Below, one piece after another: positions 2,604 to 8,450 of a DNA stretch of 64,000 nt; the first letter of the stretch is position 1; each line of letters starts with the position of its first letter. The translations under genes and the position numbers were made by a program. The DNA is from Cytophagales bacterium (GTDB taxonomy: Bacteria; Bacteroidota; Bacteroidia; Cytophagales; Spirosomataceae): contig JBBSTD010000014.1 in assembly GCA_038236215.1 (NCBI GenBank), positions 5,937 through 69,936 on the forward strand. Reading direction: 5' to 3'. The notes below the pieces were generated by a model. That model saw only the letters and a list, made by a program, of their open reading frames with translations, searched no databases and was not told the DNA's origin.

Positions 2604-3656
2604 TCAAAGAGAATTACCGATCCCTACCAGGACGATTGAAATAAGAATCACGATAATGCCGGTGACGAAGGTACGGAAGGTAGCGGCCGACACCCCCGAC
2701 CACTCTTTCAGATACAAACCCCACATATTGGCGGTCAGAATGATGGTGGCCATGTGCGTAATCCAGGAACTGGCGCCATTACCCAGTTTACTTTCACCCA
2801 TCCCGTAGAAGAAAAACTGGAGAAACCACATGGTACCAGCGGCTGCCGAAAGAAGAACATTAGCCAGAATAGGCGTCCGGGTATCGGTGTAATTGCCGAA
2901 GGTTTTATTTTTGGCGTTTAAGTACATGCACCACAAAAAATTGGTGGTCAGGCCGCCCCATAGTAGTACCACGTAGGTTACGTTATTCTGAAACAGGGGA
3001 TTGCACCCTTGCACAACCGCCTGACCTGCCAGGGGTTTGCCCGCTTCGATTCCATAGTTGAAGAAGGCACTCAGGATACCAGAGATCACGGCAATTGTCA
3101 GGCCCTTCACGAGGCTGAACTCTTTGACAGACGCTTTCTTCTCGGCTTCCGTAAGTTCAGCTTCCTTCATCATACCGGCTTTGCCCGAGATTGCAATTCC
3201 GATGAGGCAAACCAGTACGCCCAGCAACACTAACTGCCCCCCGGCTGAACCCAGCATATCGGTAAACGAGACTTTCCCTTCAACGGGGTTGACATTGTAA
3301 TAGATGGAAGGTACCAGTGCGCCGAAAGCCGAACTGAACCCTAATACAACTGAATTGCCCAGCGACATGCCCAGATAGCGAACGCCAAGGCCATACGTTA
3401 GCCCACCGATGCCCCATAGCAAACCAAACACAAACGTGAGCATCTTAACATTCATATCCGCCGAGGCAATGATGGCTGCAAAATCGGGGATGGTTAAGTA
3501 GGCGGCTAAGGGGGGGAGAATAAGCCAGGAAAAAATGCCCCCAACAATCCAGAAGCTTTCCCAGGCCCAGCCTTTCACTTTATTGAAGGGCATGTAAAAG
3601 CTGCCCGAAAAACCGCCACCAATCGTGTGGTAAATGATGCCAATCAGAACTTGCAT
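2604..3656 (-). CDS. rhaT: L-rhamnose/proton symporter
   Basis: 350-aa multi-TM ORF; GSFYMPFNKVKGWAWESFW and LWGIGGLTYGLGVRYLG motifs; sits in the rha locus. Confidence 0.9.
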   Translation of the reverse strand: MQVLIGIIYHTIGGGFSGSFYMPFNKVKGWAWESFWIVGGIFSWLILPPLAAYLTIPDFAAIIASADMNVKMLTFVFGLLWGIGGLTYGLGVRYLGMSLGNSVVLGFSSAFGALVPSIYYNVNPVEGKVSFTDMLGSAGGQLVLLGVLVCLIGIAISGKAGMMKEAELTEAEKKASVKEFSLVKGLTIAVISGILSAFFNYGIEAGKPLAGQAVVQGCNPLFQNNVTYVVLLWGGLTTNFLWCMYLNAKNKTFGNYTDTRTPILANVLLSAAAGTMWFLQFFFYGMGESKLGNGASSWITHMATIILTANMWGLYLKEWSGVSAATFRTFVTGIIVILISIVLVGIGNSL

Positions 3657-3915: not shown

Positions 3916-4139
3916 CTAATTCCACCAAAGGGTTTCTGTGGGTGCCAGCTTCAACACCTCGAGCAGGTGAGGAACGGTGAGTAAACCCAGTATCCAGGGG
4001 GCGCTAACCACGAGAACGGGCCTCCAATGAGCCAGTGACTTTCCCAGGCCCAGCCCTTCACTTTGTTGTACGGTAAGTAAAAACTGCCGGAAGCAAAACC
4101 TCCCAGCGCATGAAACAGAACACCCCGAAGTACAGCCAC
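3916..4139 (-). pseudogene. rhaT: Truncated, frameshifted second rhaT paralog (N-terminal remnant)
   Basis: GTG at 4139 gives HALGGFASGSFYLPYNKVKGWAWESHW. After a frameshift in the G5 run (3997-4001) it continues WILGLLTVPHLLEVLKLAPTETLWW, then TAG at 3918-3916. Confidence 0.8.
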
Positions 4140-4333: not shown

Positions 4334-6439
4334 ATGAACACGACACAGGCGTTCAACTACGTTAGTTACCTCTGGGATGATAAAAAAGCCGCTGAACTGG
4401 CGGGCGATGAAGTCGCGCTGTTTATTTACCGCTCCAACCTGCTTGGCGCGGACCTGCGCCTGACCAACTACGCCGGGGGAAACACCTCGGTGAAGGTGAT
4501 GGAAACCAACCCCGTTTCGGGCGAACCCGTTGAGGTAATGTGGGTGAAAGGCTCCGGTGGCGACATTGGAACGCTCACCAAAAAAGGCTGCGCTAACCTG
4601 TACGTCGAGCGGCTCCAGGCGTTGAAAAAGCGCTACCGGGGACTGGAATTTGAAGATGAAATGGTCGAACTGTTCAACCACACCCTATTCGACCCAAAAT
4701 GTGCCGCTCCGTCTATCGATACACCGTTGCATGGCCTGTTGCCGTTCAAACACATCGATCATCTACACCCCGACGCGCTGATTGCCATTGCCGCCAGTAA
4801 GGATGGGGAAGCCATCATGCACGAGATTTGGGGTGACCAGATGGCGTGGCTTCCGTGGCAGCGTCCCGGCTTCGACCTGGGTCTGAAGCTGGAAGAAACC
4901 GTCCGTGCCAATCCCAATCTGCGGGGCGTTATTCTGGGCGGGCACGGCCTGTTTACCTGGGGCGATACGTCCTACGAATCGTACATGAATACGCTGGAAG
5001 TGATCGAGCAGGCATCGGAATACCTGAACGCTAATTTCGGGAAGAAACGTCCCGTTTTTGGTGGCCCTGCCGGTCAGAGTCTGGATGTACAATCGCGCCA
5101 CAAGCAGGCAGCTGCGTTGATGCCCACCCTGCGGGGACTGGCTTCCGGCCATCGGCAGATGATCGGTCACTTTACCGACGACGAGCGGGTGCTTGAATTT
5201 GTCAACTCCAACGACCTGCCCCGGCTGGCCCGGCTGGGTACGAGTTGCCCGGACCACTTCCTGCGGACCAAAATCCGTCCGCTGGTACTTGACCCCGCCC
5301 AGCTAGCTGGAGAGGCTAGTGCCGCCTATCTTGAAAAAGCATTTGCCGATTACCGCGTCGATTATACCGCGTACTATGAGCGGAGCAAACACGCAAACAG
5401 CCCCGCCGTTCGCGATCCAAACCCAGTGGTCATGCTGCTGCCGGGTGTGGGCATGTTCACTTTCGCCAAGGATAAACAAACGGCACGGGTAGCCGCTGAG
5501 TTTTATACCAATGCCATTAACGTAATGAAGGGCGCCGAGGCTGTATCGGATTACGTTGGTTTGCCGGAGCAGGAAGCCTTCGATATCGAATACTGGTTGC
5601 TGGAAGAAGCCAAACTCCAGCGAATGCCAAAACCGAAGCCATTATCGGGTAAGATTGCTCTGATTACGGGCAGTGCGGGCGGTATCGGCAAGGCCATCGC
5701 CAAAAAATTCCTGTCTGAGGGGGCCGTTGTGGTCATCAACGACAACGATGCCGACCGGCTGGCCAGTGCCAAAGAGGAGTTTCAGAAGGAATATGGCAAA
5801 GATGCCTACGCATCGGCGTTGCTGGATGTAACGAAGGCCGACACGATTAACATGGCTTTCGATGTGGCCGCCCTATCCTTCGGTGGTGTCGATATTGCGG
5901 TGAACTGCGCGGGCTTGAGCATCTCTAAACCCATCGAAGAACACACCGAAAAAGACTGGGATTTGCTGTACGACGTGCTTGTAAAGGGTCAGTTTTTCGT
6001 GACCCAGAAAGCCGTTGAGATCATGCGGAAACAGAAACTGGGGGGTGATATATTGAACATTGTTAGTAAGAACGGGCTTGTTTCCGGACCGAACAACGCG
6101 GGCTATGGTTCGGCTAAAGCGGCACAGTTGCACCTGAGCCGCCTGAACGCGGCCGAATTGGGGAAAGATCACATCCGGGTCAACGTCGTCAATCCCGATG
6201 CCGTTATTTCGGACTCGAAAATATGGGCGGGTGCCTGGGCCGAAGGGCGGGCCAAAGCCTACGGCGTAACGGTGGCCGAACTCCCGGCTTACTACGCTAA
6301 ACGGACATTGCTAAACGAAATCATCCTGCCCGACGACATTGCCAACGCCTGTCTGGCCTTCGTAAACGGATTACTGTCCAAATCCACGGGCAACGTCCTG
6401 AACGTAGACGGTGGCGTAGCCATGGCGTTTGTACGGTAG
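4334..6439 (+). CDS. rhaD: Bifunctional rhamnulose-1-phosphate aldolase / short-chain dehydrogenase
   Basis: N-terminal class II aldolase (SIDTPLH, HLHPDA, HGLF) fused to an SDR (TGSAGGIG, YGSAK). Confidence 0.9.
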   Translation: MNTTQAFNYVSYLWDDKKAAELAGDEVALFIYRSNLLGADLRLTNYAGGNTSVKVMETNPVSGEPVEVMWVKGSGGDIGTLTKKGCANLYVERLQALKKRYRGLEFEDEMVELFNHTLFDPKCAAPSIDTPLHGLLPFKHIDHLHPDALIAIAASKDGEAIMHEIWGDQMAWLPWQRPGFDLGLKLEETVRANPNLRGVILGGHGLFTWGDTSYESYMNTLEVIEQASEYLNANFGKKRPVFGGPAGQSLDVQSRHKQAAALMPTLRGLASGHRQMIGHFTDDERVLEFVNSNDLPRLARLGTSCPDHFLRTKIRPLVLDPAQLAGEASAAYLEKAFADYRVDYTAYYERSKHANSPAVRDPNPVVMLLPGVGMFTFAKDKQTARVAAEFYTNAINVMKGAEAVSDYVGLPEQEAFDIEYWLLEEAKLQRMPKPKPLSGKIALITGSAGGIGKAIAKKFLSEGAVVVINDNDADRLASAKEEFQKEYGKDAYASALLDVTKADTINMAFDVAALSFGGVDIAVNCAGLSISKPIEEHTEKDWDLLYDVLVKGQFFVTQKAVEIMRKQKLGGDILNIVSKNGLVSGPNNAGYGSAKAAQLHLSRLNAAELGKDHIRVNVVNPDAVISDSKIWAGAWAEGRAKAYGVTVAELPAYYAKRTLLNEIILPDDIANACLAFVNGLLSKSTGNVLNVDGGVAMAFVR

Positions 6440-6460: not shown

Positions 6461-6503
6461 GGTTTACCTCCGGTGCGGTTGGCTGACGCACCGGAGGTAA
6501 ACC
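6461..6503. repeat. Perfect 17-bp hairpin after rhaD
   Basis: GGTTTACCTCCGGTGCG (6461-6477), 9-nt loop, CGCACCGGAGGTAAACC (6487-6503). No U-tract, so a stabilising or REP-like hairpin rather than a clear terminator. Confidence 0.8.
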
Positions 6504-6523
6504 GTAAACCCAATCACATTGGC

Positions 6524-6594
6524 TATCAGCCCACAAATTCATTTGTGGGTTCAAACAAACCGAATACGCCTATCAATTAACCGTTTCAACGGTT
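6524..6594. repeat. Left REP-like palindrome pair flanking the transposase
   Basis: TATCAG-CCCACAAAT-TC-ATTTGTGGG (6524-6549) and AACCGTT-TC-AACGGTT (6579-6594). Confidence 0.85.
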
Positions 6595-6595
6595 T

Positions 6596-7036
6596 TCATA
6601 CGTCGTCATCCGGGAGACCATAATGACTCATAAATCGGCGGTATTCGTCCGTAAACGTAACGGTACGGTGATGCTCTTCCTGATTTGAAATGTATGCCCG
6701 GACTCGCTGAACGTGTGATTCGCTGACGGAAAAGGCCCCGTAACCTGTTTGCCAGGAAAAAAGAGTTGGTGATAATGTAAGCTGGTTGAACGCATGGGAA
6801 CTACTTCCTTTCATCTGTTTCATCACATCCGCTATTAATTTTTTAGGGTTGAGAAGAAACAGGATATGGACGTGGTCCGCAACACCACCGATGCTGTCAA
6901 CGAAGCAGTCCATCGACGCAAGTTGGTTTCGCAATTCATCGTGTACACGGGGCCGTATAGCCTGATTAATTATCGGTTCCCGGTTTTTAGTAGCGAAGAC
7001 GACGTGGACCCAGACTTTCGATTTTGAATGACTCAT
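6596..7036 (-). mobile_element. tnpA: HUH/Y1 (IS200/IS605 TnpA superfamily) transposase, RAYT-like
   Basis: HVVFATKNR, HUH motif DHVHIL, WQTGYGAFSVS, catalytic Tyr in AYISNQEEHH; no tnpB; flanked by palindromes. Confidence 0.85.
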
Positions 7037-7057
7037 AGTGCCTGGTTGAATGGATGA

Positions 7058-7128
7058 AAACCGTTAAAACGGTTTGACAGATTAGACAAATAAACCGGTA
7101 ATCCCACACATTCATGTGTGGGCTGATA
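7058..7128. repeat. Right REP-like palindrome pair (mirror of the left pair)
   Basis: AAACCGTT-AA-AACGGTTT (7058-7075) and CCCACACAT-TC-ATGTGTGGG-CTGATA (7103-7128). Confidence 0.85.
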
Positions 7129-7175
7129 AGGTAGACATATTTCCGTAAAACGGATGATAAAACCCCAGACCCCTC

Positions 7176-8450
7176 ATGAACCTCAAGCCCGATTACGTTA
7201 CCGATTATAACCAGAGTCAGCTGGAAGCACACCAGCGTAAATTATCGTACTGGACGCAGGAGGTCGCGACGGCCGAACCCATTATACGGAAGCTGGTTGA
7301 TTTTCAAATTGCCATTCCAAGTTGGGCACTGGGTACGGGCGGTACCCGTTTTGGCCGTTTTCCGGGCGGGGGAGAACCCCGCTCACTGGAAGAGAAAATG
7401 GGCGATGTTGGATTGCTCCACGCCCTGAACCGGGCCAGTGGGGCCATTTCCCTGCACATTCCGTGGGACATTCCAACCGATGCCGGAGCCATTAAACAAC
7501 TGGCCACGCACTACGGACTACGCTTCGATGCGGTGAACTCCAACACGTTTCAGGATCAGCCGGGGGCTGAACAGAGTTATAAGTTTGGTTCCCTGCAACA
7601 CACCGACCCCGCCGTACGGCAACAGGCCATCGACCACAACATCGAAGTAATCAAACACGGCGTGGCCCTGGGTTCCGATGCCCTGACGGTTTGGCTGTCC
7701 GATGGGTCGTGTTTTCCGGGTCAGCTAAATTTCCGGAAAGCCTTCGACCGTACGCTGTCGAGTCTGGAAGCGATTTATGCCGCCCTGCCGGACAACTGGA
7801 AACTGTTTGTCGAGTACAAAGCTTTCGAGCCGAACTTCTATTCGATGACCGTGGGCGACTGGGGTAGCAGTCTCCTCTACGCTAACAAACTCGGGCCAAA
7901 GGCCTATACCCTCGTGGATTTGGGCCACCACCTGCCCAACGCCAACATCGAACAGATTGTGGCCATTCTGCTCCACCAGGGCAAACTGGGTGGGTTCCAC
8001 TTCAACGATTCCAAATACGGCGACGATGACCTTACAGCGGGTAGTATCAAACCCTACCAACTGTTCCTGATTTTTACCGAACTGGTCGACGGACTGGATG
8101 CCAAAGGCATGAACCACGCCAAAGACCTCGGCTGGATGATTGACGCCAGCCACAACGTAAAAGACCCGCTCGAAGACCTGTTGCAATCGGTCGAAGCTAT
8201 CCAGCTGGCCTATGCCCAGGCGTTGCTGGTGGACCGGGAAGCGCTGGAAGAAGCCCGCGAAGCCAACGATGCCGTTCGGGCGCAGGAAATTTTGCAGGAT
8301 GCCTTCCGAACCGACGTTCGCCCGCTGGTGGCCGAAGCCCGGCGCCGGGCCGGAGGCTCGCTGAACCCACTTGCCCTGTACCGCCAGCTAAACGTCCGTC
8401 AACAACTCATCGACGAACGCGGTGCCAAAACCGTTGCTACGGGACTGTAA
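7176..8450 (+). CDS. rhaA: L-rhamnose isomerase (xylose-isomerase-like TIM barrel)
   Basis: IPSWALGTGGTRFGRF, VEYKAFEP, VDLGHH, HFNDSKYGDDDL motifs; rha context. Confidence 0.88.
   Translation: MNLKPDYVTDYNQSQLEAHQRKLSYWTQEVATAEPIIRKLVDFQIAIPSWALGTGGTRFGRFPGGGEPRSLEEKMGDVGLLHALNRASGAISLHIPWDIPTDAGAIKQLATHYGLRFDAVNSNTFQDQPGAEQSYKFGSLQHTDPAVRQQAIDHNIEVIKHGVALGSDALTVWLSDGSCFPGQLNFRKAFDRTLSSLEAIYAALPDNWKLFVEYKAFEPNFYSMTVGDWGSSLLYANKLGPKAYTLVDLGHHLPNANIEQIVAILLHQGKLGGFHFNDSKYGDDDLTAGSIKPYQLFLIFTELVDGLDAKGMNHAKDLGWMIDASHNVKDPLEDLLQSVEAIQLAYAQALLVDREALEEAREANDAVRAQEILQDAFRTDVRPLVAEARRRAGGSLNPLALYRQLNVRQQLIDERGAKTVATGL

Follow-up and report, generated by a model that had tools for sequence, protein, structure and literature searches.

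A subclass 1.2 TnpA-Y1 gene probably nested in its own mirror-symmetric hairpin module between two rhamnose genes of a Cytophagales bacterium

We analysed a 64,000-nucleotide (nt) stretch of a Cytophagales genome (GenBank assembly GCA_038236215.1, contig JBBSTD010000014.1; hereafter, the window), in which a tnpA-like gene lies antisense between two co-oriented rhamnose genes, rhaD and rhaI. On each side the gene is followed, going outwards, by a palindrome (A, or A' on the right), a spacer, a hairpin of another type (B, or B') and a short tag. Our analyses make it probable that this is a single-copy gene for an HUH/Y1 endonuclease of single-stranded DNA (ssDNA), of TnpA-Y1 subclass 1.2, nested in its own mirror-symmetric hairpin module. 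The module would work in the manner of a REPtron, in which the gene for a repetitive extragenic palindrome (REP)-associated tyrosine transposase (RAYT) lies amid inverted REPs, or of REPINs, REP doublets that fold as one long hairpin, with an enzyme of the IS200 branch in place of the RAYT. The arrangement of hairpins and open reading frames (ORFs) first read from the window was re-found base for base, and the coordinates of both tagged B hairpins, of A, A' and tnpA and the two spacer lengths of 29 and 27 nt all proved exact (Table 1). The original prediction had located the gene between rhaD and rhaA; it does lie between rhamnose genes, but the isomerase is of the RhaI type and not an E. coli RhaA.

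The module is best described as two facing half-units. Read from the outside inwards, each consists of an 8-nt tag, TnTATCAG; the B hairpin, whose foot is CCCAC/GTGGG, whose upper stem covaries and whose loop is usually TTYA; ~27–29 nt of spacer with free sequence; and the invariant palindrome A, AACCGTTTYAACGGTTT. Two such half-units enclose either the gene or merely 10–16 nt, a configuration that we call a gene-less doublet. In the window, A begins one base beyond the tnpA stop codon, A' ends 21 nt 5' of the start codon, and no tnpB is adjacent. Each half-unit folds as two separate ssDNA hairpins (z about −4). The two arms are reverse complements in layout, and the tagged strand switches from one arm to the other. 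B and B' differ by a single compensatory pair at stem position 7, A-T to C-G, which is kept in all orthologues; this change had been noticed in the original prediction and is real. The same holds for the REPtron-like layout itself, one Y1 gene amid inverted hairpin units, which is unlike the same-strand ends of IS200/IS605 elements.

The protein passes the NCBIfam profile of the IS200/IS605 family transposases (NF033573; 70.8 bits, cut-off 55) and fails that of the RAYTs (NF047646; 24.5 bits, cut-off 80). Its motifs are D54-H55-V56-H57, W95-Q96 and Y115-ISN-Q119-EE-H122-H123 (YISNQEEHH). An alignment of 11 homologues, 38–72% identical to the window protein, shows no variation at H55, H57, W95-Q96, Y115, Q119, H122 or H123. 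An AlphaFold (AF2) model of the 146-residue protein, with a predicted local distance difference test (pLDDT) score of 86.9, found its best Foldseek matches in the TnpA proteins of ISDra2 and IS608 (E = 4e-10, 20–26% identity). These two were also the best matches in a sequence search, from whose matches the E. coli TnpA-REP structure (PDB 4ER8) was absent; 4ER8 came only 30th among the Foldseek matches (E = 9e-6, 13% identity). As references for a phylogenetic tree we used the class-2 RAYT-like genes of the genus itself and its multi-copy IS200-like genes, rather than PDB sequences. The window protein falls within a well-supported clade of subclass 1.2 sequences, and a 100/100 split divides it from the class-2 genes. 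A long branch of their own holds the multi-copy IS200-like genes; its position relative to subclass 1.2 is unsure.

TnpA-Y1 subclass 1.2 is marked by the motifs DH[IV]H, WQ and Y---Q--HH (YIKNQKEHH-like; Quentin, Siguier, Chandler and Fichant 2018, BMC Genomics 19:475, PMC6006769, Table 1). Its members are ~148 residues long, with a short core and a conserved C-terminal tail, and they occur in Bacteroidetes and Cyanobacteria at low copy number and with diverged paralogues (PMC6006769). They are described as near IS200 yet devoid of the properties of insertion sequences (ISs), with the entry 'REP: no' (PMC6006769). By its motifs, length, position in the tree and modelled fold, the window protein is a member of subclass 1.2. 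The same comparisons place it outside both the RAYT family (class 2) and the canonical multi-copy IS200 transposases. The flanking hairpins do not contradict this assignment, since the lack of REPs is a reported property of the subclass and not its definition. Membership in the RAYT family, as originally predicted, therefore had to be given up: in addition to the profile score and the tree, the motif is YISNQEEHH and not Y---NP. The Y1 tree that was proposed along with it did set the protein apart from the multi-copy IS200-like genes of the genus, though on the IS200 side.

The genome that holds the window (G000, 6.46 Mb; related genomes are numbered likewise, and extracted loci are given as L numbers) contains one intact gene of this type and one paralogue, 44% identical, with an in-frame stop codon and different hairpins. 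The paralogue (contig C106, 6179–6592, minus strand) also belongs to subclass 1.2 and has the palindrome CACCGGGTTAAAACCCGGCG upstream; it is probably inactive, because the stop, a TAG, is at codon 7. A homologue in G009 has GCGCCGGGTTAAAACCCGGCGC, of the same palindrome type, on both flanks.

Palindrome A, with 14 fixed bases, is expected ~0.02 times in 6.46 Mb and was observed five times in G000. Four of these sites, and one additional copy with a single mismatch, have a B-type hairpin 24–29 nt away, and a reversed-pattern control gave ~0 hits in 41 genomes. The A and B palindromes thus exceed chance expectation, as judged by the count of A, the pairing with B at a fixed distance and the controls. 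The view that they are accidents of chance or composition, unlinked to the gene, could appeal to the exact B sequence, present in G000 in the two local copies only. It is left with practically no probability, being refuted by these counts and controls, while the hairpins are conserved over species and phyla (see below). We also dropped the argument that B is unique and speaks for confinement to this site, as anchoring the search on A exposed hairpins of the B family with other stems.

Six units were counted in G000, two at the gene, one doublet and two singlets, in addition to one solo B. The doublet, on contig C82 (27470–27620), is a gene-less mirror arrangement, B-27-A-15-A'-27-B'. A half-unit lies on C9 (47545–47597) and a degraded one on C8, and the solo B, on C40 at 19200, is tagged on both sides. 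The genome-wide count of A, B and A+B units proposed in the original prediction therefore gave B-family plus A units at three further loci. As the protein also falls outside the multi-copy IS200-like genes in the tree, the prediction withstands its own tests on these points. The composite two-hairpin unit that it described is real and recurs at other loci, and gene-less doublets resembling REPINs exist. What does not hold is the idea of a repetitive REP family, six units being far below the size of any such family.

Within the genus, A was found in 13 of the 25 genomes searched, mostly in doublets with 10–16 nt between the two A copies. Doublets are ~125–150 bp long and number seven in G009, three each in G002 and G019, two in G006 and one in G023; the maximum among these 25 genomes is 14 A sites (seven doublets). 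The C82 doublet folds as one long ssDNA hairpin (−52.9 kcal/mol, z = −12.5), and we call it REPIN-like because this is the defining behaviour of REPINs. The orthologous site of G012 contains only GATCAG-CCCACTGCTGAACCAGTAGG-CTGATA, a single B with tags on both sides. To judge from its sequence, this solo B is what would be left by a deletion between the palindromic B and B'. It follows that the C82 site was occupied before G000 and G012, which are distant members of the genus, separated. An origin of doublets by recombination between A and A' was considered and rejected, as it would leave one A and doublets hold two.

The composition of the units was examined in 67 candidates, of which 43 were accepted. 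In these 43 units the CCCAC/GTGGG foot of B is kept and the upper three pairs of the stem covary freely. Six of the eight pairs vary on both sides (65 cells, compared with 15 in shuffles), though acceptance required at least 7/8 stem positions to be paired, a rule that inflates the percentage of paired B cells and to that extent tells against our interpretation. The tag reads TATCAG in 17 of the 67 candidates and TATTAG in 10; the consensus of the 43 units is TnTATCAG and that of the family TnTAT[CT]AG. Spacers are mostly 23–29 nt long with a mode of 29, and their sequence is not kept. A is invariant rather than covarying, and the same sequence is seen at a homologue that has 45% identity and belongs to another family. 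As a defining feature we discarded the polarity of the TTYA loops of A and B, which is a tendency only, some orthologues having flipped loops.

We observed a few variants of the module. At L049 (G009:C1:4639441–4639941), B and B' are tagged as usual, and the interior holds a single other palindrome, AAGTCGTTTAAACGACTT, in place of A...A'. Loci L031, L035 and L037 of G009 and L044–L047 of G016 share an outer module just past the tag; it reads about AATAAGCGCCGAAT... and includes a small hairpin, CCGAAT...ATTCGG. Judging from this shared sequence, some members of the family may be longer than the tag-to-tag core. Also on C82, a repeat of ~100 nt (L141, positions 2501–2601; G000 C82:28800–28900) is also found at the ends of at least nine other G000 contigs. 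It is 98–100% identical within G000 and 78–89% identical in relatives, and as a multi-copy sequence it breaks the assembly.

We then compared the rhaD-rhaI junction among relatives, as had been suggested in the original prediction. Intact orthologues, with 68–72% amino acid identity, occupy the same gap in G016, G017, G002 and G018, antisense and within the same B-spacer-A...A'-spacer-B' arrangement. Broken copies are found at this site in G010 (stop codon), G005 (internal deletion and stop) and the metagenome-assembled genome of L069 (frameshifts), whose locus is 85.8% identical at the DNA level over 2.6 kb. All three retain the four hairpins beside the broken gene. Overall, the gene, intact or broken, occupies this gap with these hairpins in seven other species genomes and one metagenome-assembled genome. 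In 12 relatives the gap is clean and empty, 25–145 nt long, often with a long hairpin of its own. Because empty sites have their own, unrelated long hairpin at this place, we consider the perfect 17-bp hairpin found upstream of the left tag in the window to be native; it exists as originally described, and it is not part of the element. In a phylogenetic tree of RhaI, whose orthologues within the genus are 79–94% identical, one well-supported clade unites six occupied genomes with two empty ones. The occupied G018 adjoins the empty G013, and the tree requires a minimum of four gains or losses.

In tnpA and rhaI alike, synonymous sites have reached saturation, and dN of tnpA is 0.16–0.27, which indicates that the intact tnpA genes are under purifying selection. 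In the seven orthologous copies, tags, B and A are near-invariant and the spacers have diverged. Given the saturation of synonymous sites, this conservation shows that the hairpins are under selection, irrespective of whether the gene is intact. Defining the ends of the element by alignment of occupied and empty gaps, for instance those of the sisters G005 and G006, did not succeed, the intergenic DNA being too diverged; certainty is limited to the core from tag to tag. Immediately beyond the tags, the occupied and empty gaps and the orthologous copies showed no conserved target motif.

Could the locus simply be an ordinary IS200/IS605 element that entered the rhaD-rhaI gap a single time and, no longer mobile, is in slow decay, with the palindromes as its end hairpins and nothing else? 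Patchy presence in close relatives, clean empty sites and the three pseudogenes among the nine copies at this site are as expected from such a history, and the NF033573 score and the top matches in sequence and fold, those to ISDra2 and IS608 TnpA, would agree with it. Nevertheless, we regard it as quite unlikely. The gene is single-copy, its only paralogue being 44% identical and provided with other hairpins, and its ends are mirror-symmetric rather than two hairpins on one strand. Motifs and tree set it apart from the multi-copy IS200-like genes of the genus, and gene-less doublets of fixed architecture exist. Moreover, intact genes persist under purifying selection past synonymous saturation, and the family is nearly absent from plasmids (see below).

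Two further observations concern this junction. In G009, the gap holds an IS110-family insertion instead (L015, G009:C1, locus positions 93–1500; 1.4 kb, with an IS110-family transposase matching PF01548 and PF02371). It appears to sit inside the native intergenic hairpin, and no A or B hairpins were found in this gap. In G018, at L056 (G018:C26:75774–76224) and L005 (G018:C9), a rhaD-like 3' end abuts or lies near an inward-facing A-28/29 nt-B unit that has additional B hairpins next to it; at C9, three copies of B and a second A lie between tnpA and rhaD. On the basis of this arrangement the C9 locus amounts to a small cluster of REPtron-like type, and a unit and the rhaD end may have undergone duplication together.

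The association extends well beyond the genus. A homologue scan with one genome per species yielded more than 584 proteins related to that of the window, spread over Bacteroidota, Ignavibacteria, Marinimicrobia and other groups; the nearest named ones are from Larkinella (56–60% identity) and Cytophagales. Among 77 distant loci with both flanks available, 36 have a best between-flank inverted repeat that beats all 20 shuffles. Most of these repeats are either (CAT)AGCCCACGGTTTAAACCGTGGGCT(ATG), ~50–80 nt upstream of the start codon, or AAACCGTTTCAACGGTTT, ~15–30 nt upstream. The commonest distant types are AGCCCAC...GTGGGCT hairpins and A-like palindromes, and the CCCAC/GTGGG foot is kept across the phylum. 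In an even sample of the phylum (301 genomes), the B pattern is present in 29 genomes, with 1–21 sites in each; every site is a true hairpin, and controls gave ~0. The gene family is present in 141 of the 301, in 1–11 diverged copies each. Genomes with B have the gene family in 24 of 29 cases (Fisher p = 3.5e-5), and the hairpins are often directly beside the gene. Only two of 72,556 plasmid records contain a homologue, and both are large non-mobilizable replicons of ~600 kb.

By analogy with the TnpA proteins of IS608 and ISDra2 and with E. coli TnpA-REP, a dimer of the enzyme would bind the hairpins on ssDNA, for example on the lagging-strand template. Y115 would serve it to cut and rejoin the DNA beside the tag, and H55, H57 and Q119 would coordinate the metal. 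The outcome could be the occasional movement, duplication, collapse or removal of a module, and a doublet might be acted on as one folded hairpin, as proposed for REPINs. A could be the sequence-specific site of the enzyme or a site that regulates the gene. Inheritance would be mostly vertical, at very low copy number.

Several results weigh against this proposal. Binding and cleavage of A or B by the protein are presumed from the related enzymes. With tagged hairpins on opposite strands, the gene-bearing unit is not expected to leave as an ssDNA circle in the manner of IS608. The copy number is tiny, six units in G000, so that active spread must be rare at best. Good doublets are kept in G009, G006, G019 and G023, which have no close orthologue of the gene, and hence the hairpins may not depend on the enzyme, or another paralogue may serve them. 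Finally, perfect hairpins beside three broken genes would fit selection for another role equally well.

These last two points lead to the main rival, according to which A and B are host elements (mRNA stabilizers, processing sites, terminators or sites for host proteins), kept for the rha operon and other transcripts, and the Y1 gene is a dispensable passenger or relic. It would account for hairpins that remain perfect although the adjacent genes were broken independently, and for well-kept doublets in genomes devoid of an orthologue. The invariance of A, which does not covary, is as expected for base-specific recognition, and a 16-bp palindrome suits a dimeric DNA-binding protein; the element is also always antisense between the co-oriented rha genes. 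On the other hand, the same hairpin types bracket the gene family in unrelated contexts and in several phyla, which ties them to the gene rather than to rha. In addition, the rhaD-rhaI gap is empty in 12 relatives, purifying selection acts on the intact genes, and neither a match in Rfam nor a T-run after A or B was found. We consider this host-function explanation unlikely, and prefer that of an enzyme with its own hairpin module.

RAYTs and REPs are the textbook example of a tamed bacterial transposase with miniature partners, an example based on the class-2 branch and mostly on Proteobacteria. The REPtron or RAYT-REP-REPIN systems reportedly include E. coli TnpA-REP (PDB 4ER8) and the Pseudomonas RAYTs, in work said to be that of Nunvar in 2010, Bertels and Rainey in 2011, and Ton-Hoang and Messing in 2012. 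Our locus shares with them a single-copy Y1 gene flanked by its own inverted hairpins, a conserved tag 5' of the hairpin (GTAG in RAYT-REP systems, TATCAG here), doublets that form one long hairpin, a mostly vertical inheritance off plasmids and a separate hairpin type for each paralogue. In contrast, the enzyme here is on the IS200 branch and lacks Y---NP, the unit is composite, with two unlike hairpins 27–29 nt apart, and units reach ~20 copies per genome rather than tens to hundreds. With IS200/IS605 elements (IS608 and ISDra2, with subclass 1.1 TnpA), which provide the closest solved structures, it has in common the HUH/Y1 fold and the catalytic residues, and recognition of a sub-terminal hairpin on ssDNA is the chemistry that would be expected here by analogy. 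It differs in not being multi-copy, in end hairpins that are not on one strand, in the lack of an adjacent tnpB and in forming a separate clade.

The locus agrees with the published account of subclass 1.2 (PMC6006769) in its motifs, length, C-terminal tail, low copy number with diverged paralogues, occurrence in Bacteroidetes and lack of IS behaviour. It departs from that account in that conserved inverted hairpins bracket the gene, here and at about half of the 77 distant loci, and gene-less modules exist. The IS200 'Group 3' of Bertels, Gallie and Rainey (2017, PMC5581495) combines an IS200-like sequence with a RAYT-like behaviour, since it lacks both duplicates and plasmid copies and its flanking 16-mers are abundant. 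This description fits the window locus, and according to Quentin et al. (PMC6006769) Bertels et al. gave no description of subclass 1.2. In the collection of literature that we searched, no paper after 2018 dealt with subclass 1.2. What distinguishes the present system is a RAYT/REPIN-like partnership on an IS200-branch enzyme of subclass 1.2, with a composite hairpin unit at very low copy number. To our knowledge, the only survey of this subclass lists no partner repeats.

An IS200-branch enzyme, found in roughly half of the sampled Bacteroidota genomes, displays the gene-inside-hairpins layout with a different, composite unit. Within one genus there is a natural series in which the gene is intact, broken (three times independently) or missing from a clean empty site, and which also includes gene-less doublets and a collapsed solo hairpin. 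This series makes it possible to test the action of the enzyme on the hairpins and to ask why the hairpins outlive the gene. As regards annotation, 'IS200/IS605 family transposase' calls in Bacteroidota are often not ISs.

A more ambitious view is that subclass 1.2 enzymes and the A/B module represent a third, phylum-wide partnership of Y1 enzymes and hairpins, beside IS200/IS605 and the class-2 RAYT-REP systems. It would be a separate taming of an IS200-type enzyme, with hairpins selected over tens of millions of years even past the death of the gene. We offer this view tentatively and think it somewhat doubtful as a whole. If correct, it would imply service in trans by paralogues or use of the hairpins by the host, for instance in the rhaD-rhaI transcripts.

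Table 1. Positions of the module, its gene and the flanking rhamnose genes in the window
Feature	Position	Strand	Evidence
RhaD-ADH type bifunctional rhamnulose-1-phosphate aldolase/short-chain dehydrogenase	4334..6439	+	NCBIfam NF006191, 1365 bits; TIGR02632, 944 bits; both above cut-offs
Hairpin, perfect 17-bp stem, 9-nt loop; native intergenic, outside the element	6461..6503	.	ssDNA fold −22.4 kcal/mol, z = −7.5
Left outer tag, TATCAG	6524..6529	+	Near-invariant in seven orthologous copies
Left B hairpin, 8-bp stem CCCACAAA/TTTGTGGG, loop TTCA (with the tag, CCCACAAATTCATTTGTGGG, 6524–6549)	6530..6549	+	Stem covaries over 43 family units
Left spacer, 29 nt, length kept, sequence free	6550..6578	.	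Comparison of orthologues and units
Left A hairpin/palindrome, AACCGTTTCAACGGTTT (6579–6594, AACCGTTTCAACGGTT)	6579..6595	+	Invariant in orthologues
tnpA-like gene, 146 residues, HUH/Y1 enzyme	6596..7036	−	Pfam PF01797 (Y1_Tnp), 88.9 bits
Right A' hairpin/palindrome, AAACCGTTAAAACGGTTT	7058..7075	−	Invariant in orthologues
Right spacer, 27 nt, diverged sequence	7076..7102	.	Comparison of orthologues
Right B' hairpin, stem CCCACACA/TGTGTGGG (with CTGATA, CCCACACATTCATGTGTGGGCTGATA, 7103–7128)	7103..7122	−	Fold and comparison of orthologues
Right outer tag, CTGATA on plus, TATCAG on minus	7123..7128	−	Comparison of orthologues
Right trailer, small hairpin TCCGT-AAA-ACGGA (7142–7154) and motif GGATNATAAA	7129..7160	.	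Partly kept in occupied sites, absent from empty ones
RhaI-type L-rhamnose isomerase	7176..8450	+	TIGR02629, 513 bits (below cut-off of 647); TIGR02635, 402 bits

The 30-nt trailer to the right of the module has an uncertain status as part of the element, judging from its distribution among sites. A scan of the locus for sigma-70 promoters and intrinsic terminators gave background levels, the sigma-70 model being one that does not cover Bacteroidota promoters. The terminator scan revealed no T-run after the native intergenic hairpin either. Upstream of rhaD, a 62-residue ORF (3951–4139, minus strand) matches the N-terminus of RhaT (Pfam PF06379, 36.9 bits) and lies ~300 nt upstream of the full-length rhaT (2604–3656, minus strand). 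By this match, it is a truncated duplicate of the 5' end of rhaT.

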